Positions 6,792-61,651 of a stretch of 64,000 bases of DNA are shown here, in pieces. The number at the start of each line of letters is the position of its first letter. Position 1 is the first letter of the stretch. The position numbers and the translations under genes were made by a program. Source of the stretch: Myxococcales bacterium (GTDB lineage Bacteria; Myxococcota_A; Polyangia; Nannocystales; Nannocystaceae). Under the pieces are notes generated by a model. It had not been told where the DNA came from, searched no databases, and was given only the letters and a program-made list of their open reading frames with translations. Location of the stretch: positions 186,730 to 250,729 of the forward strand of contig JACKDU010000002.1 of the NCBI GenBank assembly GCA_020633335.1, written 5' to 3'.

Positions 6792-8411
6792 CTAGCGCCC
6801 GTGGGACCGACAACGGGCCGCGTCGGCCGGGCTGAGCGGCCCCAGGCGGGCGCTCGCCGACGCCCCCGCAGACGCCCTCGCATCCGGCTCCCAGACCCGC
6901 TCGATGTAGCGGAGGTTGGCGGCAGCCCGCGGATGAGGAGGTAAGGCGAGGGAGCCGACGATCGCGAGGCCGCCGAGCGCGACCCCGAGGCCGACCCCGA
7001 GCCGCGCACGCGATCCCCGGGCGCACGCCGCCAGGCCGCCGAGGCCGGCGACGATCGTCGCCGGCGTGACCAACCACGCGAGCGGGAGCCCGCCGCCGCC
7101 GAGCGCCGTGAGGACGTCGTGTGGCCCCCTCCCCCCGCGGACCAGAGGCACCAGCACCTCCCCCAGCGGGTAGTCGATGTTGGTCGGATCGAGGTGCGGC
7201 CAGAGGTTGGCGGCGAGGCCGTTGAGCGCGAGGGACCAGGTGGCGAGCGCCGCGATCGCGGTCATCCACGCCATGCTCGAACGGACATGTCCCAGGAGCC
7301 ACGCGATCCCCGGGACCATCGCCGGCAGGGCGACGACGAGGTAGCGCGGGCCGATCCGCCAGCCGCCGGTGAACGAGAGGCTCGCCGTGATCACCAGGAA
7401 GAGCGCGAAGATCGCGGCGAAGACCCGCGCCTCGCTCCGCAGCCCGGGCTCGTCGCCGCGGCGGGCGAGGCCGCAGAGCCCGCCGAGCCCGAGGAGCGCG
7501 AGCGGGGCCCACCAGAGGAGGCCGGTGTCGGCCGCGAAGAAGTGCTCGCGGATCGCCGCCAGCGACGGCGCGCCGAGGCCGAGGAGGCCTTGCCCGTGCT
7601 TGGCCGCGAACTCGGGGTTGATGACGTGGTGGTAGCCGGTCCGCAGGGGCCCGCCGAAGACCGCGGCCTGGTAGGCCGCGAGCGCGAGGATCGGCGCCAG
7701 CGCCCCGCCAGCGGCCGCCAGCGCCCCGCCGAGCGCCGCCCGCCGGCCCCGCCAGAGGGCGGCCACGACCGCGATCGCCAGCGGGATCCCGGCGAAGGCC
7801 GCCGCGTACTCGACGGCGACGCTGGCCCCCGCGAGGAGCCCGCCGAGCCCGGCGCGGAGCGGCCGGCGATCGCCCAGGCCGTCGAGCGTCAGGACCGCGC
7901 CGATCCCCAGGAGGGCGGCCGCGAGCTGGTGGCCGAAGAGGAGGTGGGCGTAGGCCGCCGCCGGGGTCGCCAGCGCGTAGAGGGCGATCGCCGCGGCCGT
8001 CGGCGCCGCCCCCAGGGGGCCGGCGAAGCGCCGCCAGAAGAAGGCGCAGAGCAGGAGCGTCGGCAGGAGCCCGCCGAGGAGGCGGGCGCCGAGGGTGTAG
8101 GAGCGGAGGGTCGGCGCTTCGCCGCGGCGGGCGATCGCGTAGGCCGCGGCCGCCACCAGGCTGGTCGCCGGCGGCTTGTTCGGGTAGAGGCGGCCGTCGC
8201 GGGGCGAGCGCGCGACGTCGGGGCCGGTCGCCAGCCCGCGGGCCGAGGGCCCGTCGATCGCCCACTCGCCGCACTCGACGAGGGCCATCCCCTGGAGGAG
8301 GCGCGGGCGCTCGTTGGCGCTGCGGATCGCCTCGAAGTAGGGGACGCCGAGGCCGAGGGCGACGGCGAGGAGGCCGACGAGGATCAGCCCCTGGCGGCGG
8401 CGAGCGGACAC
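6792..8411 (-). CDS. polytopic membrane protein, glycosyltransferase family 39 / ArnT-PMT-like
   Basis: more than 10 predicted TM helices with Gly/Ala-rich hydrophobic segments and a conserved-looking first loop; the opposite-strand ORFs are Arg-rich junk. Confidence 0.45.
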   Translation of the reverse strand: MSARRRQGLILVGLLAVALGLGVPYFEAIRSANERPRLLQGMALVECGEWAIDGPSARGLATGPDVARSPRDGRLYPNKPPATSLVAAAAYAIARRGEAPTLRSYTLGARLLGGLLPTLLLCAFFWRRFAGPLGAAPTAAAIALYALATPAAAYAHLLFGHQLAAALLGIGAVLTLDGLGDRRPLRAGLGGLLAGASVAVEYAAAFAGIPLAIAVVAALWRGRRAALGGALAAAGGALAPILALAAYQAAVFGGPLRTGYHHVINPEFAAKHGQGLLGLGAPSLAAIREHFFAADTGLLWWAPLALLGLGGLCGLARRGDEPGLRSEARVFAAIFALFLVITASLSFTGGWRIGPRYLVVALPAMVPGIAWLLGHVRSSMAWMTAIAALATWSLALNGLAANLWPHLDPTNIDYPLGEVLVPLVRGGRGPHDVLTALGGGGLPLAWLVTPATIVAGLGGLAACARGSRARLGVGLGVALGGLAIVGSLALPPHPRAAANLRYIERVWEPDARASAGASASARLGPLSPADAARCRSHGR

Positions 8412-8505: not shown

Positions 8506-9231
8506 TCAGCCCTCGCCCTTGTCCTTGCCCGCGGTGATCGCCTGCTGGGCCCGCATCTTCGCCTTCAGCGCCTCGAGGGCGTCGTCGACCTCGGAGGTCG
8601 CGCCGCCGGCACCGAGGGCCGCGAGCTGGGCGTCGATCGCCGCCTCCTGGGCGGCCGCGTCCATGGTCTCGGCGTGGACCTCGTTGAAGGCCTCGAGCTG
8701 GGCGATCCGATCCTCGATGGCCGACATCCGGTCGAGCCCCCCGCCGGCGTGGATCGCCCCGGTCGAGGTCATCCCCTTCTTGGCGGCCCGCGCCTGGGCG
8801 ATCAGGGTGCCGCGGCGGAGGTTGAGCTGCTTGTGCTTGGTCTTCGCCTCGGCGATCCCCTGGCGCATGCTCTCGATCAGCTTGCGCTGCTCGACCAGCC
8901 CCTCGTCGCAGGCCTGGCGCTCGGCGGCGATCTCGACCCGCCGCTGCAGGGCCGCCCGCGCGAGGGTCTCGTCGCCGAGGCGGACCGCCTGCTCGGCCCT
9001 CTTCTCCCACTCGCCCTCGCTCTTGCGGAGGGCCTCGGCCTTCTTCTCCATCACCTTGTGGTCGACGATCGACTGGTGCAGGTCGCGCTCCGACTGCTTG
9101 ATCTGATCGGCGAGGTCATCGAGCATCAGCGCGATCTCCTGGCCAGGGTCCGAGACCGCCTCCACCGCGTCGCTGAGGGCGGAAGAGATCGACCTTCGCA
9201 TTCGACTGAAGAGCCCGGGCTTGTCACTCAT
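8506..9231 (-). CDS. pspA: PspA/IM30 family protein (phage shock protein A)
   Basis: MSDKPGLFSRMRRSISSALSDAVEAVSDPGQEIALMLDDLADQIKQSERDLHQSI and coiled-coil remainder are typical PspA/Vipp1. Confidence 0.8.
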   Translation of the reverse strand: MSDKPGLFSRMRRSISSALSDAVEAVSDPGQEIALMLDDLADQIKQSERDLHQSIVDHKVMEKKAEALRKSEGEWEKRAEQAVRLGDETLARAALQRRVEIAAERQACDEGLVEQRKLIESMRQGIAEAKTKHKQLNLRRGTLIAQARAAKKGMTSTGAIHAGGGLDRMSAIEDRIAQLEAFNEVHAETMDAAAQEAAIDAQLAALGAGGATSEVDDALEALKAKMRAQQAITAGKDKGEG

Positions 9232-9350
9232 GGTCAGGTCCGCGAGTGTACTGCCAGAGCGGGCCCCTGTCTCGTCGGCGTCGGCCAGCGCCGCCCGCGG
9301 GCTTGCTCGCCGGCGAGCTTTCGCCAATGCTCTGCACTCCCGCGCCCGCC

Positions 9351-10502
9351 ATGACCAGCGCCGAGATCCAGCCGAGCCCCGCCTTCCCCGGGGTCCGCGG
9401 CCACCACGAGGCCCAGGCGATGCTCGCCCGAGCGCTCGCCCGCGGCCAGCTCCACCACGCGATCATGCTCATCGGGCCCCGCGGGATCGGCAAGGCGACC
9501 CTCGCCCGCGGCCTCGCCTGCGCGCTCCTCTGCCCGCGCGCGCCCGGGCGCGGGTGCGGCGAGTGCCCGGTCTGCCGGCGGATCCAGGCGGGCGCCCACC
9601 CCGACGTCGACTGGCTCCTCCCCGAGGGCTCGGGCGGTCAGATCACGATCGACAGCGCCCGCGCCTGCCACGTCCGCCAGGCCGGCGGGCCCTACGAGGG
9701 CGCGGCCTACGTCGTCGTCGTCGATCCGGCCGACGCCCTCAACGAGTACTCGGGCAACGCGCTCCTCAAGGCGATCGAGGAGCCGCGCCCCGGGATCCAC
9801 TTCATCCTCCTGACCACCAACATGCAGGGGGTGCTGCCGACGATCCTCTCGCGCACGTTGCCGATCCGCCTCGGACGCCTCGACGACGCCGACGTCGCCG
9901 CGATCGTCGACGCCCGCGCGGCCGAGGTCGCGGACGAGCGCCGGCGGATGGCCGTGCTCCTCGCCGAGGGGAGCGCCGGGGTGGCGATGGAGCTCGCCCT
10001 CGATCCGGCGCTCGATCGCTGCCTGGCGCTGGTCCGCGAGGCGATGCGGGCGGCCGCCGCCGGGCCGCGGGGGATCTTCGCCGGCGAGCGGAGCCCGCTC
10101 TGGGAGAGCTACAACGCGGCGATCCAGGAGGTCGTCAGCGCCGAGGCGGCCGCTGCAGCCGAGGCCGCCGCCGACGAGGCCGCCGCCTCCGGCAAGAAGA
10201 AGCGGAGCTCCAAGAAGAAGGACGCCGCCGACAAGGGCGACGGCAAGGCGAAGGCGAGCGCCGCTCAGCAGCGCTGGGTCGCCAGCCGCCTCGCCGAGCT
10301 CTGGGTGCTCCACCTCCGCGAGCGCCTCCGCGGCCGCCCGGGGCTCCCGGGCGCGCCCCGCCTCGCCGATCCGCCGCCGGCCGAGCTCGTCCGCCGCCTC
10401 GCGGTGCTCCAGGAGCTCACCCAGCGGATCAGCCGCAACGCCAATGTCCGGTTGATCCTCGAGGAGACGCTCCTCGAGCTCGGGCAGGCCAGCGCCCACT
10501 GA
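9351..10502 (+). CDS. holB: DNA polymerase III delta-prime subunit
   Basis: GHHEAQAMLARALARGQLHHAIMLIGPRGIGKATLARGLACALLC (AAA+ Walker A) plus Zn-module CGECPVCRR and SRT sensor; ATG at 9351. Confidence 0.8.
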   Translation: MTSAEIQPSPAFPGVRGHHEAQAMLARALARGQLHHAIMLIGPRGIGKATLARGLACALLCPRAPGRGCGECPVCRRIQAGAHPDVDWLLPEGSGGQITIDSARACHVRQAGGPYEGAAYVVVVDPADALNEYSGNALLKAIEEPRPGIHFILLTTNMQGVLPTILSRTLPIRLGRLDDADVAAIVDARAAEVADERRRMAVLLAEGSAGVAMELALDPALDRCLALVREAMRAAAAGPRGIFAGERSPLWESYNAAIQEVVSAEAAAAAEAAADEAAASGKKKRSSKKKDAADKGDGKAKASAAQQRWVASRLAELWVLHLRERLRGRPGLPGAPRLADPPPAELVRRLAVLQELTQRISRNANVRLILEETLLELGQASAH

Positions 10503-14508: not shown

Positions 14509-14642
14509 CCCCTCGCAAGGCCACCCGAACCTCGCGCCGCCGACCTCGACGCTGGGCACCGCGTCGGCGTCGGCGAGCTCCACGCGTGGTGTCGCGTCGA
14601 CGCTTCGCGGGCCGACGCGCCGCCTCGATCAACAAGTTGAAT

Positions 14643-14668
14643 GGGACATGTCTCTTTGAACATGTCCC
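14643..14668. promoter_or_regulatory. palindromic motif GGGACATGT-ctctttga-ACATGTCCC (ACATGT-N8-ACATGT), copy 1 of a recurring element
   Basis: perfect 9-bp inverted repeat in an AT-rich intergenic island; the same core recurs at 46708 and 51295. Confidence 0.4.
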
Positions 14669-14893: not shown

Positions 14894-15091
14894 ATGAAGA
14901 CCCCGAAGCTGCGCCTCAACCGCGGGTCGTCGAAGCAGGTGCCTCCACCCGACGACCCCGATCTCCCCGAAAGCGCCGAGAAGCCCGCTCCTGAGGCCTC
15001 TCGACCGCCGGCCCGGACGCCCAGCGATCGCCGGCCGAAGACCGACAAGCCCGCCGACAAGGGCGACGAGGAGGAGCGGAGCGCCGCCTGA
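14894..15091 (+). CDS. hypothetical small basic/acidic disordered protein (65 aa, [15 protein letters not shown]...)
   Basis: ATG directly after the palindrome; strong G/C third-position bias (aag, ccg, ctg, cgc codons) typical of genuine genes in this genome; no homology recognised. Confidence 0.3.
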
Positions 15092-17063: not shown

Positions 17064-17100
17064 CCGCTAGCGCCCTGGCGGGCGCCAACCCGAAACGCAC

Positions 17101-17138
17101 GACGCCAGCCCAACGATGGGCTGGCGTCGCTCGTTTTG
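17101..17138. terminator. bidirectional intrinsic terminator between convergent typA and lipoprotein genes
   Basis: GACGCCAGCCC-aacgat-GGGCTGGCGTC perfect 11-bp stem followed by GCTCGTTTTGG. Confidence 0.55.
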
Positions 17139-17155
17139 GCCGACTGCGCGCGGGC

Positions 17156-17944
17156 TCAGTAGATCGTCGTCCCGTGGTAGGTCTTGGTCTCGGCGACCAG
17201 GATGTCCATGAGACCGGCGTTGATCTGGGCCGCGTTCGCCTCGTAGGTCGAGAAGTCGATCCCGTCGAAGAAGCGGTCATAGGTCTTCGCCGCGGTCGTC
17301 TTGTGGGCGCCGGAGTCGGCCACGATGTCGTACTCGTCCGGGGTCCCGTCGCCGTCGCGGAGCTTGTCCTTGACGATCCGCGAGTCGCTCGAGACGAGGT
17401 TGAAGTTGACGTTCACCCCGTCCTTGACCGCCACCCCCGCGAGGAAGATCGTCATCCCTTCGATCGGCGCGCCGCTCGGGATCGGGTGCGGGGTCTCCGG
17501 GCTCTCAGCGGCGACGGCCGCCGAGTAGGGGCCGTACTCGACGACCATCTCGCAGTACTTGCCCTCCGGGAGCTCGGTGCCGCCGATGATCGTCACGTCG
17601 CGATCGGCCGCGTTGACCCACTCCGGCAGCGGCCCGCGCGGCATGTGGATCTCATGCTGGGCGCCGTCGCAGGCGATCAGGGTGGCGCCGGTGATCACGA
17701 AGTAGCCGTCGCTGACGTTGATCTCCCAGCCGAGGTCGTTGACGAAGGTCCGCTTGGACTCCGGGAGGCCGTAGTCCGGGATCTCGCCGGTCTGGTCGCG
17801 CCGCCCGTGGTGGCTCGCGTAGACGTTGAGCTGAACGAGGCTGGTGTCCCCGAAGAGCTCGCAGCCCGCGCTCCCGCCTGCGAGGAGAGAGGCCGTCACG
17901 AGCATGGCGAGTGCGGAGCGAGGCGAAGGCATAGGCGAAGGCAT
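17156..17944 (-). CDS. secreted lipoprotein, function unknown (lower-GC gene)
   Basis: signal peptide with lipobox-like LLAGGSAGC; Asp/Gly/Thr-rich mature part; noticeably lower GC than neighbours. Confidence 0.55.
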   Translation of the reverse strand: MPSPMPSPRSALAMLVTASLLAGGSAGCELFGDTSLVQLNVYASHHGRRDQTGEIPDYGLPESKRTFVNDLGWEINVSDGYFVITGATLIACDGAQHEIHMPRGPLPEWVNAADRDVTIIGGTELPEGKYCEMVVEYGPYSAAVAAESPETPHPIPSGAPIEGMTIFLAGVAVKDGVNVNFNLVSSDSRIVKDKLRDGDGTPDEYDIVADSGAHKTTAAKTYDRFFDGIDFSTYEANAAQINAGLMDILVAETKTYHGTTIY

Positions 17945-22800: not shown

Positions 22801-23430
22801 CTAGCGCTCCATGAGCTGACCCAGCGCCCGCCGGACGACCTCGTCGAGGCTGGCGTCGCCGAGGTCGCCGGTCGCGGCCAGGCGGCCGAGGGCCGCGTCG
22901 ACCTCGCGCGCGCGCCAGCCGAGGCCGACCAGGACCTCCTTGGCCTCGGCCACGAGCGCGTCGCTCGGGTCGCCGGCCGCCGCCTCCGCCGGCGCCTCCG
23001 CCCCGGGCTCCGCCGGCACGAGGCCGTCGAGCTTGCCCTTGAGCGAGAGGAGGATCTGCTCGGCGGTCTTCTTGCCGATCCCCGGGATCTTCTCGAGCTT
23101 GCCCTGCTCGCCGGCCGCGAGGCAGGTGACCAGCTCACCGAAGGGGAGCCCGCCGAGGACCGCGATCGCGTTCTTCGGCCCGACCTTCGGGACCCCGAGG
23201 AGCCGGAGGAAGAGCTCGCGCTCGGCCGCGCTGGCGAAGCCGAAGAGGGCGATGATGTCCTCACGGACATGTGTGTGGATCCAGAGCTCGCAGCGCTCGC
23301 CGACCGCGGGGATCGACCCGAGCGTCTGGATCGACACCCGCACCTCGTAGCCGACCCCGCCGACGTCGACGGTGACCGTCGCGCTCCGCGGGTCGCGGAT
23401 CAGAACCTGTCCTGAGAGCCATCCAATCAT
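22801..23430 (-). CDS. ruvA: Holliday junction DNA helicase RuvA
   Basis: MIGWLSGQV start, HhH motifs (LLGVPKVGPKNAIAVL; IPGIGKKTAEQI) and C-terminal domain III. Confidence 0.85.
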   Translation of the reverse strand: MIGWLSGQVLIRDPRSATVTVDVGGVGYEVRVSIQTLGSIPAVGERCELWIHTHVREDIIALFGFASAAERELFLRLLGVPKVGPKNAIAVLGGLPFGELVTCLAAGEQGKLEKIPGIGKKTAEQILLSLKGKLDGLVPAEPGAEAPAEAAAGDPSDALVAEAKEVLVGLGWRAREVDAALGRLAATGDLGDASLDEVVRRALGQLMER

Positions 23431-31582: not shown

Positions 31583-31635
31583 GCCGATCGCGGGCCGGGG
31601 CCGAGGGTCGAGGCTCGAGGCTCGATTGATCGGTC

Positions 31636-31716
31636 TGCGGATCTCACCGGGACGATCTCTCGAGCGCGTCGATCGGAGCCGATCTCGGTGAGCCGATCTC
31701 ACTGACTCGATCTCGA
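31636..31716. repeat. array of five to six CGATCTC direct repeats at ~14-bp period in the intergenic region upstream of the SAH-repeat gene
   Basis: gatctc at 31640, 31654, 31681, 31695 and 31709, with a degenerate gatcgg at 31671; followed by an aattttt stretch. Confidence 0.4.
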
Positions 31717-31970
31717 ATTTTTCGGGACCAGGAGGTCGTCGCCTCGTGATCGGCGGATCGCCACGTCGATCGTCGGCGCCTCAGCGAAGGCACGTCGCCC
31801 GGAAAAAGGCAAAAATTTGGCCCGCTCCCGGGGACGTGGCATCTCGGTCAGGTGGTGATCGACGTCCCCTCCCAGGGCGTCGGCGGAGGTCGCCGCTGCG
31901 ATCTCCGACAACGGTGCGTCACCGCGAAAGAACAACCCCCCCGATCTGCCTCCGCTACACTGTGCCCGCC

Positions 31971-34900
31971 ATGGCGATACGCCCACTTCCCGGTGAGCTG
32001 CTTGCGAGCTTGCCCCGGGGGATTGATCAATCCCAGATCACCCACCACGTCCCGCTGCGCGGCGGCCCTGACGGGCTCCTCGGCGAGACCCATCTCCTCG
32101 TCTTCGACGGGGAGCTCATCGTCGTCACCCGCGGCTCGTCGCGGGCGGAGTTCCGGCGCCTCGACCTCGACGCCGAGGAGCGGGCGATGCTCCTCGCCGA
32201 GGGTTGGTCGGTCCAGCTGAGCCTGCCGACCGTCGGCACGCCGACCCGCTTCGACGTCGCCTCACGCGACGTGGCGACCGTCCTGGCGCTCCTCTCGGCG
32301 GTCAAGCCGGGCCAGCGCCACGGCGACGAGGACGAGCTCGAGGTCGACCTCGAGCTCGACGAGGCCAAGCCGCGGAGGCAGAGCGTTTCCGCGCAAGGCC
32401 ATGGCTACGCGCAGACGCAGCTTGAGCGCGGCGTGCGAGAGATCGTCGCGCCGGCGCATGAGGTCGCGGCGGCGCGTGAGGCTGCTGCTCGTGAGGCCGC
32501 TGCTCGTGAGGCCGCTGCTCGGGAGGCTGCTGCTCGGGAGGCTGCTGCTCGCGAGGCTGCCGCCCGCGAGGCTGCTGCTCGTGAGGCTGCTGCTCGGGAG
32601 GCTGCTGCCCGCGAGGCTGCTGCTCGTGAGGCTGCTGCCCGTGAGGCTGCTGCCCGCGAGGCTGCTGCCCGCGAGGCTGCTGCCCGTGAGGCTGCTGCTC
32701 GTGAGGCTGCTGCCCGCGAGGCTGCTGCCCGTGAGGCTGCTGCTCGTGAGGCTGCTGCCCGCGAGGCTGCTGCCCGTGAGGCTGCTGCCCGTGAGGCTGC
32801 TGCTCGCGAGGCTGCTGCCCGTGAGGCTGCTCGCGAGGCCGCCGCCCGTGAGGCCGCCGCCCGTGAGGCCGCCGCCCGTGAGGCCGCCGCCCGTGAGGCC
32901 GCCGCCCGTGAGGCCGCCGCCCGTGAGGCCGCCGCCCGTCGCGAGGCCGCTGCTCGTGAGGCCGCTGCCCCGCGAGGCCGCCGCTCGTGAGGCCGCCGCT
33001 CGTCGCGAGGCCGCTGCCCGCGAGGCGGCGGCTACCCGTGAGGCCGCTGCCCGCGAGGCCGCCCGCGAAACCGCCGCTCGTGAAGCTCGCGAGCCTCGCC
33101 GCCCGCGAGGCGGCGATCCGTGAGGCCCGCGAGGCCGCCGCCCGCGAGGCCTCGATCCGTGAGGCCCGCGAGGCCGCCGCCCGCGAGGCCGCCGCACGCG
33201 AAGCCGCCGCCCGCGAGGCCGCCGCCCGCGAGGCGCTCGCCGCCGCGATCAACGCCCCCGCGGACGCCTGGCGCGCGCCGACCAGCCTCCGCGACGCCTT
33301 CGCGCGCCAGCAGGAGGACGAGCAGGCGACCGACGAGTCGCCGGCCGACACCGCGATCGGCAACCGCGACCTCCACGCTCTCGCCACCTCCTTCGCCGCC
33401 GGCGCCCCCTCGCCCGCGGCCCGGCGTCGCCCCGCGCCCGAGGCCACGCCGCCCGGACGTCAGCTGGACGCCGACGAGGCCTCCCTCTCGATCGAGCTCG
33501 ATGAGGTCTTCGGCGCGCTCGACGAGTCGCCCGCCCTCGCCTCCGCGATGCCAACTCCGGTGGTCGTGACCCCCGTCGCCCCGCCGCCGCCGACGCTCGT
33601 CACCCCCATGAGCGAGGCCGACACGCCCAGCGTCACCCGACGCGGCGGCGCCCTCCGCTTCAACTTCGACGCGATCCCGGAGCCCGTGGCCCCGCCCGCG
33701 CCCGCGCCCGCGATCCACACGGCGCCCTCCCCCGCCCCGGTGATCACGCCCGAGCCCTCGGCGCCGACCCTCCGGCGTCGCACCCGGCCCGACTACGACG
33801 GCCGCGGCGCCCTCTTCGGCGACGTGCACGACGACGCGGAGCAGAGCGGCAACATCGCCCTCGCCAACTTCTTCGACGCCCACGTGCCGGCGCCGCAGGA
33901 GGACGACGTCCCCCGCCCGCGTCGGATCGTCCCGGCGACCGAGCCCGAGCTCCCGCGGGTGACGCCGACGCCGGCCGCGGTCCTCGCCCCGGAGCTCCTC
34001 GCCGCGCCCGCGCCGACGCTAGCGACCCCGGTGGCGCCGGCGCTCACGCACGAGGCCCCGTCCCTCTCCGCCGCCGCGACGCCGACCTTCGAGGTGCCCC
34101 GTCACGACGCGCCCGCGCCCTCCCTCACCGCCTTCGAGGCCCCCGCGGCCGCCGCCTCGCTCCTCCGCGAGGAGGCGCCGCACTACAGCGCGGCCCTCGA
34201 GACCGCGCCGGAGGACGCGGCCGATCCCTTCGACGGCCTCCTCGACGAGGCGCCCGCGAACCTCGATCTCGAGGCGCCAGTCGCCGCCGCCGCGGACGAG
34301 CTCGAGACCGTCGATGAGACCCCGCGCCGGAGCGCCACGCCACGCCCGAACCGCCGCCTGATCCCCTCCAAGTGGGCCCAGGAGACGGCCTCCGCCGCGG
34401 CCTCGGTGGCCGCGAGCGCGGCCTCGGCGACGGCGTCCGCCGCCTCCGCCGCGGTCGGCCGCGCCCGCACCGCGGCCTCGCGGATGCTCGATCGCCAGCG
34501 CGACCGCCAGCGCTCCCGCGTCGGCCACCCCCGCCGCAACCGCCGACGCGGTGGCGTCAGCGCGCTCCGCCCGAGCTGGACCGTCGGCGCCGCCCTGATG
34601 GTCGCCGCCCTCCTGATCTACTGGGCGCTCCCCGGCACCGACGAGGTCGCGTCCACGGTCGAGGCCCCGGTCGCCGGCAGCCAGGTCGCCGCCCCCCTCG
34701 CCGAGCTCGCCAACGAGATCCGCCTCAGCCAGCGCGACGCGGCGATCCCGGCCTCGGCCGGTCCGGGCGCGACCCGCTCGCTCCCCGGCGAGGCCGACGA
34801 CGACGTGGTGATCGACGACGAAGCCGACGCCGACGCGCCCCCCTCGGGCTCCGGCGACGCCACCCCGACGAAGGCCAAGGCCGACCGCGACTTCTACGGG

Positions 34901-35161
34901 ATCGCCACCCTGACCGCGAGCTCACCGCAGCCCGAGCGCATGGCCCTCCGCGAGTGTCGCCCGCTCGCCGAGCGGGGCACCGAGATCCGGGTCAAGGTCG
35001 AGATCGACGAGCGCAGCGGCACCGTCCCCGAGGTCTGGGTCGGCGACTCGTCGATGGATCGCCAGCTCCGCCACTGCATCGTCCGCCAGTTCAAGAAGGC
35101 GACCTTCGAGCCCAAGGCGAAGGGCAAGCTGGTCAAGCAGCGGCTCAAGCTCCACTTCTAG
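31971..35161 (+). CDS. large protein with a globular N-domain, ~50x (REAAA) single-alpha-helix-type repeat, Pro/Ala-rich region, TM helix and TonB-C-like C-terminal domain; reading frame interrupted by two +1 shifts inside the repeat
   Basis: ATG at 31971 (MAIRPLPGELL); the REAAA reading frame moves from frame 0 to frame 1 (at ~32975, an extra C in gctgccccgcgag) and to frame 2 (at ~33090); C-terminus RGTEIRVKVEIDERSGTVPEVWVGDSSMDRQLRHCIVRQFKKATFEP resembles a TonB C-terminal domain. Confidence 0.5.
32470..33240 (+). repeat. ~51 tandem copies of a 15-bp unit (cgtgaggctgctgct and variants) encoding (AREAA)n
   Basis: perfect 15-nt periodicity visible across 32470-33240, with synonymous third-position variants. 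Confidence 0.85.
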
Positions 35162-40709: not shown

Positions 40710-42125
40710 ATGATCCAGATCGGCCAAGAGCTCCGGACCTGGCGCGGCGCCGTCCGCCACCGCCTCGACCCCAAGCGCCCGCCCCTCCTCGGCTGGCAGG
40801 TGCCGCTGATCGGCTGCGGCGTGCAGATCGGCCGCCACGGACCGGGCTGGCTCCTCGACCAGGTCAAGCGGCGGGGCTTCCCGCTCACGCTCTACGTGAT
40901 GGGCAAGGAGATCACCTTCGGCGGCGATCCCGAGTACGCCCGCTTCTTCTACTCGGCGGGGACCGAAGAGGTCTCGTTCTTCGAGGGGATCAAGGTCTTC
41001 CCGGGGGTCGGCGACCTCGTCGAGATCGGCCTCACCGGCCCCGAGGGGTCGACGCTGACCCTCGAGGTGCTCCGCCGCCACCTCGGCGCGCGGATCTCCA
41101 GCGTCGGCGCCGAGCTCGACCAGGAGCTCAGCGTCGCCCTCCGCGAGGGGCTGGCGAGCGGCCGCGCCCCCCTCCTCGGCGTCCTCCGCACGGCGATCCT
41201 GCGGCTCACGGCCCACCTCCTCCTCGGCCCCGACCTCGCCCGCGACCGGACCTTCATCGCCGACCTCTGCGACTTCGACGAGGCGACCCTCGCCTGCCTG
41301 CGGGCGCCCTGGAGCCGCCGCCCCGTCGCCCGCGGCCTCGCGGCGCGGGGGCGCGCGGTCGCCCGCATGCGCGCCGAGCTCGAGGGACGAGGACCACCCA
41401 CGAGCGACGCGCCGCGGGACATCGGCGACGCCATGCGATCGGCGGCAGCCGCCGCCGCCGAGGCCGGCGGCCCGCGCCTGAGCGACGAGATCATCGCCCG
41501 CGATCTCCAGGGGATCCTCTTCGGGACCGTCGCCAACACCCCCGCGGCCGCGGCGATCACCCTCCACCGCGTCCTCACCGATCCCGCCCTCAAGCGCCGC
41601 CTCGAGGAGGAGCAGGCCGCGGTGAGCCGCGAGCGCGGGCCGACGATCGACGCCGCCGCCCTCAAGGCGATGCCGGTCCTGAACGCGACCTACCTCGAGG
41701 GGCTCCGGGTCTACGCGCCGATGATCCACATCCGCATGACCCTGACGCCGGTCGAGATCGGCGGCTACCGGGTGCCGGCCCGCTCGCTGATCGGCTTCTC
41801 GCCCTACATCCTCCACCGCGATCCGGCGGTCTACGAGGACCCCGAGGTCTTCGACCCCGACCGCTTCCTCGCCGGCCCGCGGCGCCCGGCCGCGGCCCCG
41901 CCGAACAGCCACTTCGTCCCCTACGGGCGCGGGATCCACACCTGCCTCGGCCGCAACCTCGCGCGCCAGGAGATCATGATGTCGATCGCCCGCCTCCTCC
42001 GCGACTACGAGGTCGAGCTCAGCGACCCGTCGCCGACGGTCGCCGACTGGCTGACCAACGGGATCGCGGCGCCCGCGGGCGCGCCCTCGCTGATCGCCCG
42101 ACCGCGCGGCGCGAGCCTCGGCTAA
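40710..42125 (+). CDS. cytochrome P450
   Basis: heme-binding loop FVPYGRGIHTCLGRNLARQE (FxxGxxxCxG), ExxR (EGLRV) and PERF-like DPDRF. Confidence 0.85.
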   Translation: MIQIGQELRTWRGAVRHRLDPKRPPLLGWQVPLIGCGVQIGRHGPGWLLDQVKRRGFPLTLYVMGKEITFGGDPEYARFFYSAGTEEVSFFEGIKVFPGVGDLVEIGLTGPEGSTLTLEVLRRHLGARISSVGAELDQELSVALREGLASGRAPLLGVLRTAILRLTAHLLLGPDLARDRTFIADLCDFDEATLACLRAPWSRRPVARGLAARGRAVARMRAELEGRGPPTSDAPRDIGDAMRSAAAAAAEAGGPRLSDEIIARDLQGILFGTVANTPAAAAITLHRVLTDPALKRRLEEEQAAVSRERGPTIDAAALKAMPVLNATYLEGLRVYAPMIHIRMTLTPVEIGGYRVPARSLIGFSPYILHRDPAVYEDPEVFDPDRFLAGPRRPAAAPPNSHFVPYGRGIHTCLGRNLARQEIMMSIARLLRDYEVELSDPSPTVADWLTNGIAAPAGAPSLIARPRGASLG

Positions 42126-42139
42126 TGGCCTGCCTGAGA

Positions 42140-42160
42140 GAATGTCCTTCTGGACATGTT
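42140..42160. promoter_or_regulatory. hairpin / degenerate copy of the ACATGT motif (gaATGTCC-ttct-GGACATgtt) between the convergent P450 and kinase genes
   Basis: 6-bp stem ATGTCC/GGACAT with ttct loop and AT-rich flanks; a possible bidirectional terminator. Confidence 0.3.
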
Positions 42161-42174
42161 CTAAGGCGCAGCCA

Positions 42175-45100
42175 TCAGCGGCGGTGGGTCGCCAACCAGG
42201 CGTCGACGTCCCTCAGCTCGTCGGCGAAGTCGGGCGAGCCGGCGAAGACCGTGCGGGCCGCGCTCGCCAGCTCCCGGGCCCGCTCGCGGTCGCCCCGGGC
42301 CTCCCAGAGCGCCCGCGCCAGGGTCGCCCTGGCGAGGGCGAGGCGCGGATCGCCGTCCGCGAGCCCGAGCGTCAGCACCCGCTCGAGGCCGGCGACCGCC
42401 TCGGCGGAGCGGCCGAGCTCGAGGCGATCGAGGCCGAGGCCGATCGCCGTCATCACCCCCTCCTTGGCGAGGCCGCGGGCCTCGAAGATCGCCATCGCCC
42501 GCCCGTCGAGGGCGAGCGCCTCGGCGAAGGCCCGCCGCTTGCGCTGGAGGTGGGCGAAGCGGCTCAGGCTCGAGGCCAGCGCCGGGTGCTCCTTGCCGAG
42601 GGCGGCCTCGCGGATCGCCAGCGCCCGCGTCCAGTAGGGCACCGCCTCGTCGTCGCGACCGAGCCGGGAGAGGCTGTCGGCGAGGCCCTCCAGCGGGTAG
42701 GCGACGTTCGGGTGCTCGGGCCCGAGCGCCTCCTCCATCACCGCGAGCGCCCGCTCGTTGGTCCGCCGCGACGCCTCGAAGTCGTGGGCCCGGAGCTCGC
42801 CGAGGCCGATGTTGTAGAGGAGCGTCCCCTTGAGCTTGAGCTCCGCGTCGGGATCGGCGTCGACGATCGCCAGCGCCCGCCGGTAGATCGCCAGCGACTC
42901 CTCCCCCTCGCCCTTGGCCGCGAGGGCCGCCGCGAGGTTGTTAAGGCTGCCGAGCACGTCCGGGTGATCGTCGCCGAACGAGGCCTCGCGGATCGCCAGC
43001 GCCCGCCGATGGAGCGCCAGCGCCTCGTCGACCTCGCCGCCGCTGCGGAGCGCGCTCGCCAGGCTGTCGAGGGTCTCGGCGACCTTCGGGTGCTCGGGCC
43101 CGAGGGCGGCCTCGCGGATCGCCAGCGCCCGCCGGTGGAGCGCCAGCGCCTCCCTGGGCTCGCCGAGCTTCTCCTTGGTGATCGCCAGGTTGTGGAGCGC
43201 CTGGGCGACCATCGGGTGCTCGGGGCCGTAGGCGGCCTCCCAGGCCGCGAGCGTCCGCTCGTGGAGGCGGGCCGCCTCCTCGTACTTGCCGGCCGAGTAG
43301 TGGGCGAGCGCGAGGGCGTTGTCGATCCGCGCCCGCAGGAGCCGCTCCTCGCCGGCGCCGAGCATCGCCAGGGCGGTCGTCGCCGCCTCGGCCCAGACCT
43401 GGCCCTCGGCGAAGCGGTTGCGACGATCGCCGACGACCCACACGAGGTGGGTCATGATCGAGATCGCCAGGCGGGCCTCGCCGGCCTCGCGCGCGCGCTC
43501 CAACGCCCGGATCAGCGATCCCTCGGCGGCTTCGAATTCCCCGAGCTCGCCCTCGGCCTTCGCCAGGGCGAAGAGCGCCTCAGCCTCGAGATCCGGGCGC
43601 CTTCGGGCCTCCGCCGCCTTCAGGGCCTCGCTCGCGGCGTCGCGGCTGGCCACGAATTGACCGGCCGCCACCAGCGACGAGGCCCGCCGCAGGCGACCGC
43701 GGAGGTCGCGGAAGGCCTCGATCTCGCCGGCGCTCGCCAAGCTTCGCTCGCGCAGGCGGGCGACGTCGAGGCACTCCTCGGCCCCCTCGAGGCCGGCCGC
43801 GGCGGCCGTCGCCCGCACCAGCGTCGTCGCGCTCGCGCCGTCGAATTCCTCGATGAGCGAGGCGAAGGAGGCGCGGGACTCGTCGAGGCAGGCGCGCGCG
43901 CGGACCCGGAGATCGTCGTCCCAGATCGCGTCGACCTCGTGGTTGACGCAGGCCTGGGTCGCGCTCCCCCGCCAGGTGGCGGCCCAGCGATCGAGCCAGG
44001 GGATCGTCTTGTCGGCCGTGGTCGCGGCCGCGGGCTTGCCGGTCGCCGTGAAGGCCCGGCGCAGCGAGGCCTGGCGCTCGTCGTTCCAGACCTCGGCGAT
44101 CGCCGCGCCCTCCGCCTCGCAGCCGGCGATCGTCCGCTGCCGCAGCGCCTCGTCGACGCCGAAGCCGGTGACCGCGAGGCCGGCGACGCCGAGGGCGGCG
44201 ACCGCATAGCGGGCGCGGCGGGTCCGCGTGCTGTGGAGATCGAGGGCGCTGAGGAGCGCCCGGAGGTCCGCCCAGCGGCGCTCGGGATCGGGGTCGAGGC
44301 CCCGCTCGAGCACCCGGTTCAGCCAGCGCGGGACCCCGGAGCCGCGCGGCGGCGGCTGGCGCTCGCCGGTCATCACGTTTCGCCGGAGCTCCGCGAAGTT
44401 CTCGCCGCCGAAGGGCCGGACGCCGTGGAGGCCCTCCCAGAGGGTGACGCAGAAGGCGAAGACGTCGGCCGGCGCCCCGGCGACGCCGCCCGCGAACTGC
44501 TCGGGCGCCATGTAGGCGGGCGTGCCGACCACCGCGCCCGCCTGGGTGACGTCGACCGCGAGGCGCCCCTCGACGCTGGTCGTGAGCTCCTCCGCCGGCC
44601 CGCTCGCGCCCCGGCGGGCGAGGCCGAAGTCCATCACCCGCGCCCGACCGTCGCGGCCGATCATCACGTTCTCCGGCTTCACGTCGCGGTGGACGAGCCC
44701 GGCGGCATGGGCGGCCGCGAGGCCCTCGCCGACCGATCGCATCAGCGCCAGGACCTCGCGCCAGGAGTGCGCGTCCTCGCCGAACCACTTGGTCAGCGTC
44801 CGGCCCTCGACGAACTCCATGGCGATCCACACCTCGTCGCCGTGGACGCCGACGTCGTGGACGCCGACGACGTTGGGGTGAGAGAGCTTCGCCAGCGCCT
44901 GGGCCTCGCGGAGGAGCCGCGCCCGCGCCCCCGAGGACCCGGAGATCGAGCCGGCGCCGAGCTCGGGGCGGAGGAGCTTGAGGGCGATCTTGCGGTCGAG
45001 CTCGGGATCGAAGGCGGCGTAGACCACCCCCATCGCCCCGGCGCCGAGGGGATCGAGGATCACGTAGCGGCCGACGATCGACCCCCGTGGCAGCGTCTGG

Positions 45101-46731
45101 ACGGCGCCGCTCGCCTGCCCGAGGCTCTGCAGCGTGACGTCAAAGCTGCTCTGCACGGCCTCGCTCGCGCGGGTCTCGTCGATCCCGCCGGCGGCCCGCG
45201 GGAGATCGCTGGCCCGGGTCTCGCCCCAGCGAGCCTCGCTCACCCGGGTCTCGTCGAGCGCAGCGCGCGGGCGATGGGCCCCGAGCGGTCCAAGGCCCGC
45301 GCGGGTCTCGGCGATCGTCCCCTCCGCCACCGCCTCGATCGACGTCGGCGCGGGCTCGGCCGCCGACGGATCGCGGGTCTCCTCGAGCGAGCCGCCCTCG
45401 GTCGCCGCGCCGGGCAACTTCGGCAGCTCGTGCTGCCCCGAAAAAGAGGTCTCAAAGAGCCAGGCGCTGCTCTCCATCGGCATCTCGTGCTCTCCGTCCG
45501 TGGCGCTCTCGTGGGCCTCGTGGAGAGGCCCGACCCCGCTCCCGAGCGAGGCAAAATCAGGCGGCGCGTCGATCTCGGCGAAGGGCGCCGCGGATCGATC
45601 CGCGAGGGTCGCCGTGTCCTCCTCGATCGAGCCGTCGACCGGGGCCGAAGGCTCGGCGATCGCCGCCAGCGACCCGACGCCGCGACCCTGCGCCGCGAAT
45701 TCCGGGAGCGCGTCGAGGAGGGCGGAGGTCGTCTCGGGGGGCGCCGACGCGGCCTCCGGGAGCTCCTCGTCCTCGTCCTCGGGCGACGCGAGCGCGCGCT
45801 CGGATGCCGACCACGACCCGCTGGCCTCGGCCGCGGAGAGCTCCGAGAGGCTCTCGAGGAGCGACGCGACCTCCCCCTCCGGCGACGCGGGCTCCGGCGG
45901 CGCGTCGAGGAGCGCCGCCGACATCCAGCGCTCGACGAAGGACTTTCCACGCGACTCCGAGGCGGGGACGTCGTCGTCGTCCGGCTCCAGGAGCGTCTTC
46001 AGGAGCTCGTCCACCGGCCGCGGCGTCTCGGTCGACAGGTCGCCCTCCGCAGCCTCCGTAGCCTCCGCAGCCTCTCCCGACGCATCCTCTGACGCACCCT
46101 CCGCCGCATCCGAAGACGACGCGTCCTCCGACGCGTCCGCCGACGCCTCGGCGTCCCCGGGCGCCACATCGGCCGGCGCGTCACCCTCGGCGAGCGAGTC
46201 GCCGGCCCCGTCGGGCGCGGGCTCCGTCGCCGGCCCCTCGCCGCTCACGTCGGCCTCCTCGGCCGCCGCGGGCTCGTCGGCGTCGTCCTCGTCCTCGTCC
46301 TCGCTCCGCGGGCTCAGGAGCGCGTCGAGGATCGATCCGCCCCCGCTCGCGCCGAGCCCGGACGCCAGCGCGTCGCCCTCGGGCGCCGCGTCATCCTCCA
46401 CGGGCTCCGCGAGCAACGGCGCAGAGACGCCGACCTGCAGGGCGAGCGCCGCCAGCGAGAGACCGTCGTCGTCGTCGCTCTTCGAGCCCGCCGTGGTGAC
46501 CGGCGGGCCGCTTCGAATCGACTCCAGGACGCCGCCCCGCGCGACCTCGACGGCTCCGCCGCCGATCGTCTGATACGTGTCCTTCGGCCCGCGCCCGCGC
46601 CCGTCCTCGTCACCCACCACCACACGACGATGGTAGCGAGGGTGCGAGGCGCTCCGCTCGACAAAACCCGGCCACGATTCCGCGCCCCCGAGGCGCTCCT
46701 TCGCTCTCGCATGTCCGAAGAGACATGTCAT
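42175..46731 (-). CDS. Ser/Thr protein kinase with ~500-aa acidic low-complexity N-terminal region and long C-terminal TPR-repeat array
   Basis: kinase blocks GAGAMGVVYAAF, HRDVKPENVMI, DFGLA, APE; C-terminal TPR_10/12-like repeats (HRRALAIREAALGPEHPKVAETLDSLA x several); the start at 46731 is uncertain; the listed 2294-aa ORF fuses this gene with an out-of-frame read-through of recD2. Confidence 0.7.
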   Translation of the reverse strand: MTCLFGHARAKERLGGAESWPGFVERSASHPRYHRRVVVGDEDGRGRGPKDTYQTIGGGAVEVARGGVLESIRSGPPVTTAGSKSDDDDGLSLAALALQVGVSAPLLAEPVEDDAAPEGDALASGLGASGGGSILDALLSPRSEDEDEDDADEPAAAEEADVSGEGPATEPAPDGAGDSLAEGDAPADVAPGDAEASADASEDASSSDAAEGASEDASGEAAEATEAAEGDLSTETPRPVDELLKTLLEPDDDDVPASESRGKSFVERWMSAALLDAPPEPASPEGEVASLLESLSELSAAEASGSWSASERALASPEDEDEELPEAASAPPETTSALLDALPEFAAQGRGVGSLAAIAEPSAPVDGSIEEDTATLADRSAAPFAEIDAPPDFASLGSGVGPLHEAHESATDGEHEMPMESSAWLFETSFSGQHELPKLPGAATEGGSLEETRDPSAAEPAPTSIEAVAEGTIAETRAGLGPLGAHRPRAALDETRVSEARWGETRASDLPRAAGGIDETRASEAVQSSFDVTLQSLGQASGAVQTLPRGSIVGRYVILDPLGAGAMGVVYAAFDPELDRKIALKLLRPELGAGSISGSSGARARLLREAQALAKLSHPNVVGVHDVGVHGDEVWIAMEFVEGRTLTKWFGEDAHSWREVLALMRSVGEGLAAAHAAGLVHRDVKPENVMIGRDGRARVMDFGLARRGASGPAEELTTSVEGRLAVDVTQAGAVVGTPAYMAPEQFAGGVAGAPADVFAFCVTLWEGLHGVRPFGGENFAELRRNVMTGERQPPPRGSGVPRWLNRVLERGLDPDPERRWADLRALLSALDLHSTRTRRARYAVAALGVAGLAVTGFGVDEALRQRTIAGCEAEGAAIAEVWNDERQASLRRAFTATGKPAAATTADKTIPWLDRWAATWRGSATQACVNHEVDAIWDDDLRVRARACLDESRASFASLIEEFDGASATTLVRATAAAAGLEGAEECLDVARLRERSLASAGEIEAFRDLRGRLRRASSLVAAGQFVASRDAASEALKAAEARRRPDLEAEALFALAKAEGELGEFEAAEGSLIRALERAREAGEARLAISIMTHLVWVVGDRRNRFAEGQVWAEAATTALAMLGAGEERLLRARIDNALALAHYSAGKYEEAARLHERTLAAWEAAYGPEHPMVAQALHNLAITKEKLGEPREALALHRRALAIREAALGPEHPKVAETLDSLASALRSGGEVDEALALHRRALAIREASFGDDHPDVLGSLNNLAAALAAKGEGEESLAIYRRALAIVDADPDAELKLKGTLLYNIGLGELRAHDFEASRRTNERALAVMEEALGPEHPNVAYPLEGLADSLSRLGRDDEAVPYWTRALAIREAALGKEHPALASSLSRFAHLQRKRRAFAEALALDGRAMAIFEARGLAKEGVMTAIGLGLDRLELGRSAEAVAGLERVLTLGLADGDPRLALARATLARALWEARGDRERARELASAARTVFAGSPDFADELRDVDAWLATHRR
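46708..46730. promoter_or_regulatory. copy 2 of the ACATGT-N8-ACATGT motif (minus strand TGACATGT-ctcttcgg-ACATGCG) overlapping the first candidate start codon of the kinase
   Basis: same hexamers and near-identical spacer (ctcttcgg vs ctctttga vs ctcattgg) as the copies at 14643 and 51295. Confidence 0.4.
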
Positions 46732-51294: not shown

Positions 51295-51318
51295 CCACAT
51301 GTCTCATTGGACATGTGG
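51295..51318. promoter_or_regulatory. copy 3 of the ACATGT motif: CCACATGTC-tcattg-GACATGTGG, perfect 9-bp inverted repeat, ~90 bp upstream of the LTD gene; degenerate copy at 51351..51367
   Basis: read directly; second partial copy tCATGTcccttcggACAG 33 bp downstream. Confidence 0.4.
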
Positions 51319-51378
51319 ATGCGCCCCTCCCCGCGGGCGCGCCCATCCTTCATGTCCCTTCGGACAGAAAAGAACAAC

Positions 51379-52308
51379 TCAGCGCCCGCAGCCGACGATC
51401 CCCAGCGCCCCGCCGAGCTCGCCCGCGGCCGCGAACGAGGGCCCCGCGTCCCGATAGCGGTGGCCCCGCCAGAAGTCCCGCGGGTCCTCGGCGACGTCGA
51501 GGAAGCGCTCGCCCTCCCGCGCCCCCGCGACCACCGCGATCGGCGTCGAGATCGACTCCCCGGAGAGCATGAAGTGGAGGGTGAGCACGTCCCCCGCGCG
51601 GCGGTAGGTCAGCGCCTCCGTCGTCCACTCGTCGTAGTCGCCGCGGTGGAACCAGCCGACCCCGCGGCCGTCGATCGTCTGCGGCTGGAGCTGGTACATG
51701 CCGAAGCCGATCCCGCCGGCAGCGAAGCGCCGCTCGTCGCTCCAGAGGCGGTTGCCGATCCCCCCTCCGGCCGCGTCGACCTCGTGGTCCACGTCACAGG
51801 CGACCGCCCGCGCGTCGCCGTCGCGAAAGTAGCGGGCCCCCGCCTCCCGCGGATCGCCCTCGAGGATCAGCCAGGTCCGCCCCGGGATCTCCGGATCGGC
51901 CTCGAGGCGGTAGGCCAGCGTGTGCTCCTCGCCGGTCTTGCGGAAGCGCAGGTGCACCCGCCCGCCGACGAAGCGGTAGTCGAAGGCGTGGGTGTTGGTC
52001 AGGCCGACCTTGCCGTAGCGGTAGAGGCCGATCCCGCCGCCGTGGAAGTAGTAGAAGCGGACGAGATCGCCCTCGGAGTGGGCCGCGAAGCGGTGCCAGA
52101 CGCCGACCAGCGGATCGCTCGCGGGCGCCTCGTCGCACGCCGGATCGACGGCCGCGGCCTCGGCGAGGAGCGCCGCCTCGTCGACCTCGACGATCGTCGT
52201 CGCGGCCGGGGCCGGGGCCGGGCGCTCGATCCCCGCGAGGGCGAGGACGAGCGGCACCGCGAGGAGACCGACGAGGGAGCAGCCGGTGGAGATCTTCGTC
52301 TGCGACAT
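51379..52308 (-). CDS. secreted hypothetical protein
   Basis: signal peptide MSQTKISTGCSLVGLLAVPLVLALAG; Trp/Tyr/Gly-rich mature region; codon usage consistent with coding. Confidence 0.45.
   Translation of the reverse strand: MSQTKISTGCSLVGLLAVPLVLALAGIERPAPAPAATTIVEVDEAALLAEAAAVDPACDEAPASDPLVGVWHRFAAHSEGDLVRFYYFHGGGIGLYRYGKVGLTNTHAFDYRFVGGRVHLRFRKTGEEHTLAYRLEADPEIPGRTWLILEGDPREAGARYFRDGDARAVACDVDHEVDAAGGGIGNRLWSDERRFAAGGIGFGMYQLQPQTIDGRGVGWFHRGDYDEWTTEALTYRRAGDVLTLHFMLSGESISTPIAVVAGAREGERFLDVAEDPRDFWRGHRYRDAGPSFAAAGELGGALGIVGCGR

Positions 52309-58936: not shown

Positions 58937-61651
<2,715 letters not shown>

Follow-up and report, generated by a model that had tools for sequence, protein, structure and literature searches.

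Lineage-specific short words that are over-represented by orders of magnitude and occur in both coding and non-coding DNA are known from several bacterial groups, and include the cyanobacterial highly iterated palindrome HIP1 (GCGATCGC), the DNA uptake sequences (DUS) of Neisseria, which often form inverted pairs after genes, and the uptake signal sequences (USS) of the Pasteurellaceae. Tandem sub-sites that are bound cooperatively by small dimeric proteins are represented by the 8-bp metboxes of MetJ (AGACGTCT) and by the heptads of the omega repressor. Repetitive extragenic palindromes (REPs) and the related bacterial interspersed mosaic elements (BIMEs) and REPINs are short extragenic palindromes with hundreds to thousands of copies in particular lineages such as enterobacteria and pseudomonads, and the REPs of E. 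coli act as terminators and stabilisers in 3' untranslated regions (3' UTRs) (bioRxiv 10.64898/2026.03.23.713779). The consensus operator of PadR regulators reads ATGT-N8-ACAT (PMC4517056). In the present study, these systems are compared with a palindromic element found in a stretch of 64,000 nucleotides (the window) from a member of the Nannocystaceae (assembly GCA_020633335.1, contig JACKDU010000002.1, positions 186,730 to 250,729 of the forward strand), for which a first-pass annotation had described a recurring ACATGT-N8-ACATGT palindrome. The palindromes of the window belong to a very abundant, lineage-specific repeat family of the Nannocystaceae and related Polyangia, which resembles the REPs in being short, palindromic, numerous and restricted to a lineage.

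The five sequences cited in the first-pass annotation were all present at their coordinates when the letters of the window were checked directly, and they have the common core ATGTC-N6-GACAT. Chance expectations in the window, which has a GC content of 73.6%, were obtained from dinucleotide-preserving shuffles. The common core was matched ten times with at most one mismatch (0.38 matches expected), the sequence TGTC-N6-GACA six times (0.35 expected) and the hexamer ACATGT ten times (1.33 expected). The 19-mer consensus ACATGTCTCNTYGRACATG is represented by three exact matches, and only 0.04 matches were expected even with three mismatches allowed. In total, the window contains five intergenic copies and two to three copies within genes, and the window copies share no sequence beyond approximately 24 bp. 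The density of the family is low in the window organism, at about 0.1 copies per kb, and functional conclusions are therefore drawn mostly from relatives with denser copies.

A scan with the window consensus ACATGTCYCNTYGRACATG of one genome per species, covering 185,579 species, yielded at least 115 stretches. About 89 of the 115 matches listed originate from Nannocystis, Nannocystaceae, Polyangia or metagenome-assembled genomes assigned to 'Myxococcales', and the named Nannocystis among them are N. punicea, N. exedens, N. pusilla, N. bainbridge, N. radixulma and Nannocystis sp. RBIL2. The other 26 of the matches listed are singletons scattered over unrelated phyla, as is typical of chance hits, and a scan of 2.9 million viral contigs gave just three isolated single matches, which corresponds to chance level. 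A look-up of the rlmE gene, located next to one of the window copies, revealed contigs of nearly the same sequence, both in GCA_020431225.1 and in assemblies of the sludge type. The distribution of the motif was graded in loci with rlmE homologues that had been fetched from metagenomes irrespective of the motif: some of these relatives contain arrays, including one downstream of rlmE itself (L130/L131), and several 20-kb rlmE loci of more distant relatives contain no motif. Rfam searches at the gathering threshold gave no match in the window and none in eight array-rich Nannocystis loci. A description of the motif in Nannocystis or other myxobacteria was found neither by full-text literature searches nor in one review of myxobacterial genomics, and a literature search with GACATGTC returned only papers on p53 response elements; the repeat family is apparently undescribed.

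The anatomy of the family was deduced from 86 high-GC loci with a total length of 727 kb. The sampled Nannocystis tiles, each of 8 kb and picked for containing one motif copy, harbor about 3 to 12 copies of the relaxed core per tile. The half-sites of TGTC-Nx-GACA were separated by six nucleotides in 301 cases and by each of the other spacings between N2 and N11 in nine cases at most. As N6 is the sole favoured spacing, the primary unit of the family is a 14-bp dyad, TGTCC-N4-GGACA, which is mostly extended to CATGTCC-N4-GGACATG. The dyads are tiled head to tail without gaps, and the box GGACATGTCC that recurs every 14 bp represents the junction of two abutting units. The ACATGT-N8-ACATGT unit of the first-pass annotation is the same structure viewed from its junction boxes, but the invariant unit is the dyad. 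Distances between GACATGTC boxes were exclusively 14, 28, 42 and 56 bp (137, 39, 32 and 18 cases, respectively), with no case at 13 or 15 bp, and 88% of the exact boxes had a partner at a distance of 14 bp on either side, compared with about 1% at a control offset. The arrays consist of two to six boxes without preference for even numbers; three-box arrays are commoner than four-box arrays, which is at odds with a hairpin-forming pair as the repeated unit.

About 47% of the units represent the sub-type ATGTC...GACAT and 16% the sub-type CTGTC...GACAG, the rest being hybrids. The sequence logo of the family is symmetric and shows an enrichment of A/T at the four central positions and no polarity relative to transcription, and its information content is at background level outside the 10-bp boxes, the flanks being unrelated. 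Among 405 copies, 183 distinct spacers were counted; no spacer is dominant outside the search pattern and there is no master copy. The spacers are rich in purines or pyrimidines on one strand, likewise without orientation relative to transcription. The logo contains neither a T-tract, the downstream T frequency being at most 0.30 and mirrored by A upstream, nor a conserved asymmetric head of the GTAG tetranucleotide type. Two to five abutting short sub-sites, palindromes or heptads, in exact register are a feature shared with the sites of MetJ and the omega repressor, and the metbox resembles the junction box. However, those sites recur with a period of 7 to 8 bp and serve as operators in the promoters of small regulons or of plasmid genes, whereas the present family has a period of 14 bp and is distributed genome-wide at the 3' ends of genes. 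Some Nannocystis intergenic regions additionally contain longer tandem repeats with units of 78, 118, 65 and 69 bp in three to five copies and with one dyad per unit (L076, 4060-4449; L097, 4990-5343; L104, 2630-2955; L117, 7700-7975), the copy number of which varies between close species.

The location of the copies in the relatives was determined with our own gene calls based on the GC content of third codon positions (GC3), and the regions of the seed matches were left out of the counts. Within the 727 kb, a copy was present in 50% of the convergent, 22% of the tandem and 8% of the divergent intergenic regions. The corresponding densities were 3.96, 1.5 and 0.3 copies per kb, compared with 0.16 copies per kb in coding regions. 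The copies in tandem regions were located at a median distance of 78 nt from the upstream stop codon and of 286 nt from the next start codon, and arrays often start at the stop codon or a few bases from it and fill short gaps between convergent genes. The first-pass annotation had named a random frequency, equal in coding regions, as the result that would speak against the element; the motif is instead far more frequent than random and 12 to 25 times denser outside genes. Its copies are concentrated after genes and excluded from divergent promoter regions.

The family is also over-represented within genes. ATGTC-N6-GACAT was counted 68 times in gene interiors, as opposed to 6.75 ± 2.4 times in codon shuffles, and the enrichment was 40-fold for TGTC-N6-GACA and 37-fold for CATG-N10-CATG, with no enrichment of the N9 and N11 spacings. 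Overall, the in-gene over-representation amounts to 10- to 40-fold and extends to all three reading frames. The in-gene copies are translated as DMSxxT, VxxDM or CxxGH, show strong GC3 on both sides and are often part of low-complexity stretches rich in acidic residues or in Ser and Thr. Even within genes, selection or drive acts on the dyad word at the level of the DNA. An array of three boxes in exact 14-bp register was observed inside a conserved coding gene (…LETCLIGHGEKGMSPLW…) of two Nannocystis species, at approximately 3716-3760 of L026 and in the orthologue in L097.

With respect to REPs, which are imperfect palindromes of 20 to 40 nt with many copies, the two-box units of the present family are comparable in size, forming palindromes of 20 to 26 nt, and, on our own gene calls, comparable in location at gene 3' ends and in convergent regions. 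Both are concentrated after genes and between convergent genes, are locally clustered and reside in hypervariable intergenic regions. The Nannocystis-type unit proper is much shorter, however, with 14 to 20 bp, and follows a strict 14-bp register; its loops and spacers are unrelated, whereas REPs descend from a master sequence and are near-identical down to their loops and flanks, and it lacks a GTAG head. Moreover, REPs are confined to extragenic DNA, unlike the present family with its strong in-gene excess. The family is therefore of the iterated extragenic palindrome type without being a REP family. Among the small repeats suggested by the first-pass annotation, a REP-like element nevertheless comes closest, since the family is lineage-wide, abundant and located 3' of genes, whereas a miniature inverted-repeat transposable element is rejected because the flanks are unrelated, the spacers differ and neither the window copies nor the logo contain a conserved body beyond about 24 bp.

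The copies within genes bring to mind a genome-wide signature word without a local role, which would be maintained by molecular drive or a chromosome-level process in the manner of DUS, HIP1, or methylation or repair motifs. Like DUS and USS, the dyad motif is over-represented and restricted to a lineage, with about 0.4 to 0.5 copies per kb in Nannocystis tiles, and its abundance in all frames of genes, its depletion solely where it would interfere, namely in divergent promoter regions, and the precedent of the Neisseria inverted pairs after genes point in the same direction. This explanation is nevertheless improbable. The intergenic bias of 12- to 25-fold is much stronger than that of USS or HIP1, and phage contigs are devoid of the motif. 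A dyad of a single spacing that is tiled at 14 bp differs, to our knowledge, from all known uptake sequences and from HIP1.

Whether the palindromes are conserved as sequence or as structure can be judged from the pairing of their flanks. The numbers of Watson-Crick pairs at the inner flank positions, next to the CATG of adjacent boxes (84, 121 and 109), were close to those in shuffles (80.8, 111.5 and 107), which indicates that the flank positions are independent draws from the consensus with essentially no compensatory covariation, and the stems of non-consensus units were just 65% paired. The element is recognized by sequence and not by compensated pairing. Between N. pusilla and strain RBIL2, the flanking genes of which are about 95% identical, an element was exactly kept in an intergenic region that is otherwise unalignable. 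At orthologous sites the boxes differed by 5.0% and the flanks by 11.8%, although a slower divergence of the boxes is suggestive only, as these values come from only 10 alignable sites and are subject to ascertainment bias.

Taken together, we tentatively favor the view that the family represents phased binding sites of a lineage-specific, symmetric DNA-binding protein, filling the genomic niche of the E. coli REP elements. Each dyad would be the recognition site of a putative symmetric and probably dimeric protein that binds double-stranded DNA, and adjoining dimers would bind in fixed register. The sites would be tolerated, and probably used, mainly just 3' of genes and between convergent genes and would be kept out of promoter regions, so that arrays may function as 3'-end elements of the REP kind and, for instance, block read-through or supercoiling or help to structure the chromosome. 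A symmetric reader of double-stranded DNA is suggested by the symmetry, the fixed spacing, the A/T-rich and presumably non-contacted center, the odd-numbered arrays, the exact register and the lack of a master copy. Judged by its letters, the geometry of the dyad equals the known winged-helix operator consensus ATGT-N8-ACAT. In a more specific and rather unlikely variant, a lineage-specific protein would polymerize on the tiled dyads in the 14-bp register and thereby act as a factor-dependent, bidirectional barrier to transcription or supercoils at gene ends. Such a protein would replace U-tract terminators, since U-tracts are costly in genomes with 72-74% GC and protein-based terminators might be used there, and the in-gene copies would then be weak or regulated sites.

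Several observations weigh against the assignment of the arrays to a DNA-binding protein. The two-box units of the window can be folded, with energies of -15 to -21 kcal/mol and z-scores of -1.9 to -4.0. Complementarity is modestly raised in the outer flanks, about 7% of the isolated units have palindromes reaching well past the consensus (24 units with at least six of eight outer pairs, 10.5 expected), and mismatches on the sense strand are slightly more often of the G-U type (145) than of the A-C type (107), all of which are weak signals for pairing. In one pair of orthologues, 3 bp of the spacer were lost with both boxes retained. Furthermore, Pfam analysis detected no gene for a PadR-type or other helix-turn-helix (HTH) regulator among the genes scanned in the 64-kb window, and the location statistics depend on our own gene calls and on tiles preselected for one copy, albeit with the seed regions excluded.

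Part of this evidence is consistent with the main, somewhat less probable alternative, in which a REP-like hairpin with a stem of 8 to 10 bp and a loop of 4 to 6 nt acts in the 3' UTR at the level of RNA or single-stranded DNA. Such hairpins would stabilize the upstream mRNA and weaken read-through from either side, a role that has been reported for the REPs of E. coli, and their copies may have been spread by a REP-associated tyrosine transposase (RAYT) or be read by another hairpin-binding protein. The fold energies well below those of shuffles, the subset of extended stems with the complementarity of the outer flanks, and the slight G-U excess agree with this alternative, as do the preference for the 3' ends of genes and for convergent regions (median distances of 78 nt to the stop codon and 286 nt to the next start codon), the occurrence in local hypervariable clusters and longer tandem arrays, and the combined function of E. 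coli REPs as 3'-UTR terminators and stabilisers (bioRxiv 10.64898/2026.03.23.713779). On the other hand, the inner stem lacks compensatory covariation, a strict 14-bp register and frequent odd-numbered arrays are unnecessary for hairpins, and the unrelated spacers indicate that the copies are not a copy-and-paste population. The in-gene enrichment and the absence of a GTAG-type head set the family further apart from REPs. A RAYT gene, which in REP systems is a single-copy Y1 transposase gene with the repeats on its flanks, was not found in the fetched loci, which cover about 1% of each genome: a tblastn search of all fetched DNA with the E. coli RayT protein gave one spurious weak match to an alpha/beta-hydrolase-like open reading frame (ORF) of L058.

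Hairpin-capable palindromes directly after stop codons, including those between convergent genes, are also typical of intrinsic terminators. The present element, however, has no U- or A-tract, its stem is conserved in sequence and not in structure alone, contains A/T in a genome of 72-74% GC and is also found inside genes. An intrinsic terminator is accordingly rejected as its identity, because a hairpin is possible but the U-tract is missing and the scan for terminator consensus sequences found none at the copies. A textbook bidirectional intrinsic terminator is located in the window at 17090-17139, between the convergent typA gene and a gene at 17156-17905 (minus strand); it consists of 23-nt arms with 87% complementarity and a 4-nt loop, preceded by an A-tract and followed by a T-tract. 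This contrast case demonstrates that the ACATGT elements are not the sole 3'-end signal of the organism, and the use of a canonical terminator there, as opposed to elements without T-tract, is a further argument against the hairpin explanation.

The genes of the window were called from GC3, since lists of ORFs are useless at such a GC content, and were then annotated with Pfam. The first copy was cited at 14643-14668 (GGGACATGTCTCTTTGAACATGTCCC) between rlmE and typA, and both genes were verified by Pfam. It is part of a three-box array in 14-bp register at 14631-14668 (no strand assigned), composed of a degenerate box AACAAGTT (14631-14638), which lies exactly 14 bp upstream and beyond the cited span, and of the boxes GACATGTC (14645-14652) and AACATGTC (14659-14666). 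According to the fold and shuffle analysis, the RNA of this copy has a folding energy of -17.2 kcal/mol (z = -3.1). The array is located 135 nt past the rlmE stop codon (14508), 230 nt ahead of a 65-aa ORF and 478 nt ahead of typA. This ORF (14894-15091, plus strand) in the long rlmE-typA spacer encodes a Pro/Lys/Arg-rich product without a Pfam match, is called as a gene in three public contigs and could specify a leader or small protein of typA. Two relatives are differently occupied downstream of rlmE. L121, closely related to the window organism, has another tandem repeat (9190-9400, with units such as CACGTCGTCGCGCCGTGACG) in place of the ACATGT element, and in L128 (8905-8960) the direct repeat CCTGTCCCTTCAGTCAG starts at the rlmE stop codon with two to three copies; the latter is of the CTGTCC sub-type with the partner GTCAG instead of GGACAG.

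The second copy at 46708-46730 (minus strand; TGACATGTCTCTTCGGACATGCG) is located 249 nt past the stop codon (46977) of a recD2-like helicase gene and about 85 to 100 nt ahead of the start that GC3 supports for a TPR Ser/Thr kinase gene (42175-46623), both flanking genes being encoded on the minus strand. Its palindrome is lengthened by flanking inverted repeats (CTTCGC...GCGAAG). The copy had been placed at the first possible start codon of the kinase, and its ATG is indeed in frame with that gene, but the GC3 signal begins only near 46623. The third copy at 51295-51318 (CCACATGTCTCATTGGACATGTGG) is a perfect 9+9 palindrome with a 6-nt center (fold -21.3 kcal/mol, z = -2.75), about 63 nt past the stop codon of a gene at 51379-52308 (minus strand) and about 93 nt ahead of the lipoprotein-like start (~51204) of the gene to which the first-pass annotation had assigned a lamin-tail domain (LTD). 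The product of this LTD-like gene (49460 to ~51204, minus strand) resembles a lipoprotein at its N-terminus (…LLAFLVTSASAC) and a lamin-tail domain in a stretch at its C-terminus (IAEVLANPAGPEPAQEFVELVD), and no Pfam match was obtained at E<=0.01. The fourth copy, cited in a degenerate form at 51351-51367 (ATGTCCCTTCGGACAG), extends to 51349-51370 (TTCATGTCCCTTCGGACAGAAA) and combines the ATGTCC and CTGTCC/GGACAG sub-types as a hybrid; it follows the stop codon at 51379 after 12 nt, and its center is 53 bp away from that of the third copy.

The fifth copy, cited as a hairpin-like variant at 42140-42160 (ATGTCCTTCTGGACATGT), occupies positions 42139-42160 (GAATGTCCTTCTGGACATGTTC) in the middle of the 49 bp that separate the stop codons of two convergent genes, a P450 gene on the plus strand (40710-42125) and, on the minus strand, the TPR kinase gene with its stop codon at 42175. 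Its palindrome reaches into the flanks (CCTGAGAGA...TTCTAAGG), and its fold has a z-score of -3.97 on the plus strand and of -3.61 on the minus strand. Copies 2, 4 and 5 are of the extended-palindrome kind. Given these gene contexts, every intergenic copy of the window lies downstream of a gene, and copy 5 is upstream of none. That the element is exclusively intergenic, as stated in the first-pass annotation, applies to these five copies but not to the coding matches. The core dyad TGTCTCCGGGGACA of a CTGTC/GACAG-like sub-type is found at 61201-61214 within the ORF of a Ser/Thr kinase (58937-61459, minus strand), and a copy with three mismatches is present in coding DNA at 7272-7290. The exact match ATGTCCTCACGGACAT at 23255-23270 within ruvA encodes the conserved segment T-H-V-R-E-D-I-I and can be explained by the protein sequence alone, which makes its membership in the family doubtful.

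The positions of copies 1 to 3 would allow them to serve as classical operators, with a dimeric repressor of the PadR type (ATGT-N8-ACAT) or a similar one controlling the genes located 3' of them, i.e. the typA leader ORF, the TPR kinase gene and the LTD-like lipoprotein gene. The core of the family is the exact published PadR consensus in geometry and half-site letters (ATGTC-N6-GACAT equals ATGT-N8-ACAT) and is symmetric as for a winged-helix dimer; copies 2 and 3 are located about 90 to 100 nt ahead of start codons, and the 53 bp between copies 3 and 4 correspond to approximately five helical turns. Nevertheless, local repression of this kind is very unlikely. PadR operators occur singly, in the promoter of padR and in those of a small number of targets, whereas the present family comprises thousands of sites, mostly past stop codons and often in arrays, with no padR gene nearby and no HTH gene among those scanned in the window. 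Moreover, copy 5 is situated between two stop codons, five sites per 64 kb and thousands per Nannocystis genome are far in excess of what a local repressor requires, and the sites are depleted in divergent promoter regions. The dimeric operator suggested by the first-pass annotation consequently holds as far as the geometry of a dimeric DNA-binding protein is concerned, but not with respect to copy number, 3'-end bias and in-gene copies.

A -35-like core (TTGAACA/TTGGACA) as part of a promoter had also been proposed, and the hexamers TTGAAC and TTGGAC do occur within copies 1 and 3. This proposal was abandoned as hardly credible: consensus scans for promoters and terminators around the window copies found nothing at the copies, and in particular no sigma-70-like hexamer pair with a -10 partner; the strand-symmetric logo contains no conserved element at a fixed downstream distance; the orientation relative to genes is random; and copies are located between convergent genes, as is copy 5, and inside genes, with depletion in divergent regions. 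A role as start codon or leader peptide was likewise discarded, as the ATG is part of the motif and is in frame in copy 2, out of frame in copy 4 and opens an ORF of three codons in copy 1. Sites of the CRP/FNR and MrpC types have the geometry TGT-N10-ACA; they were rejected since the motif is TGT-N8-ACA and does not tolerate other spacings. The LexA box (CTGT-N8-ACAG) has the geometry of the CTGTC sub-type, but an SOS regulon is excluded by copy number and location. CsrA-type GGA arrays do not match in their letters, and the symmetric logo favors double-stranded DNA. The most likely role of the element is that of a recognition site for a protein, as opposed to a promoter or a classical operator.

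Other repetitive features of the window were recorded along with the motif. A GATC-dense island at 31583-31780 (especially 31676-31715), with 11 GATC per 200 bp compared with a window mean of about 2.9, is located downstream of an amidase gene and contains 2.9 copies of the 14-bp tandem repeat GAGCCGATCTCGCT, which has a 14-bp period with a different box. A 15-bp coding tandem repeat with 38 to 50 copies (consensus CGTGAGGCTGCTGCC) covers positions 32475-33234 across the overlapping ORFs 31746-32990 and 32987-35161; the former matches the histone-H1-like HC2 family, and the repeat may encode a repetitive nucleoid-associated protein. The 100-nt tRNA-Arg(CCG) gene predicted by ARAGORN at 59613-59712 (minus strand) inside the kinase ORF 58937-61459 is implausible, unrelated to the motif and probably a false positive.

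If the proposed reading of the arrays as protein-binding sites is true, approximately half of the convergent junctions in the 11-13 Mb genomes of Nannocystis carry one and the same sequence-specific signal, which would imply that a protein is dedicated to reading it and that it has a function at gene ends throughout the genome. This function could be termination, insulation, mRNA stability or chromosome structure, and it would be undescribed for myxobacteria. The rigid 14-bp tiling provides an experimental handle, as a 42-bp oligonucleotide with three boxes could be used in pull-down assays to capture the reader. The family would also be suitable as an insulator or terminator part for the engineering of natural-product producers. 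Moreover, it constitutes a clade-specific genomic signature that could aid the annotation of gene ends and the binning of Nannocystaceae from metagenomes.

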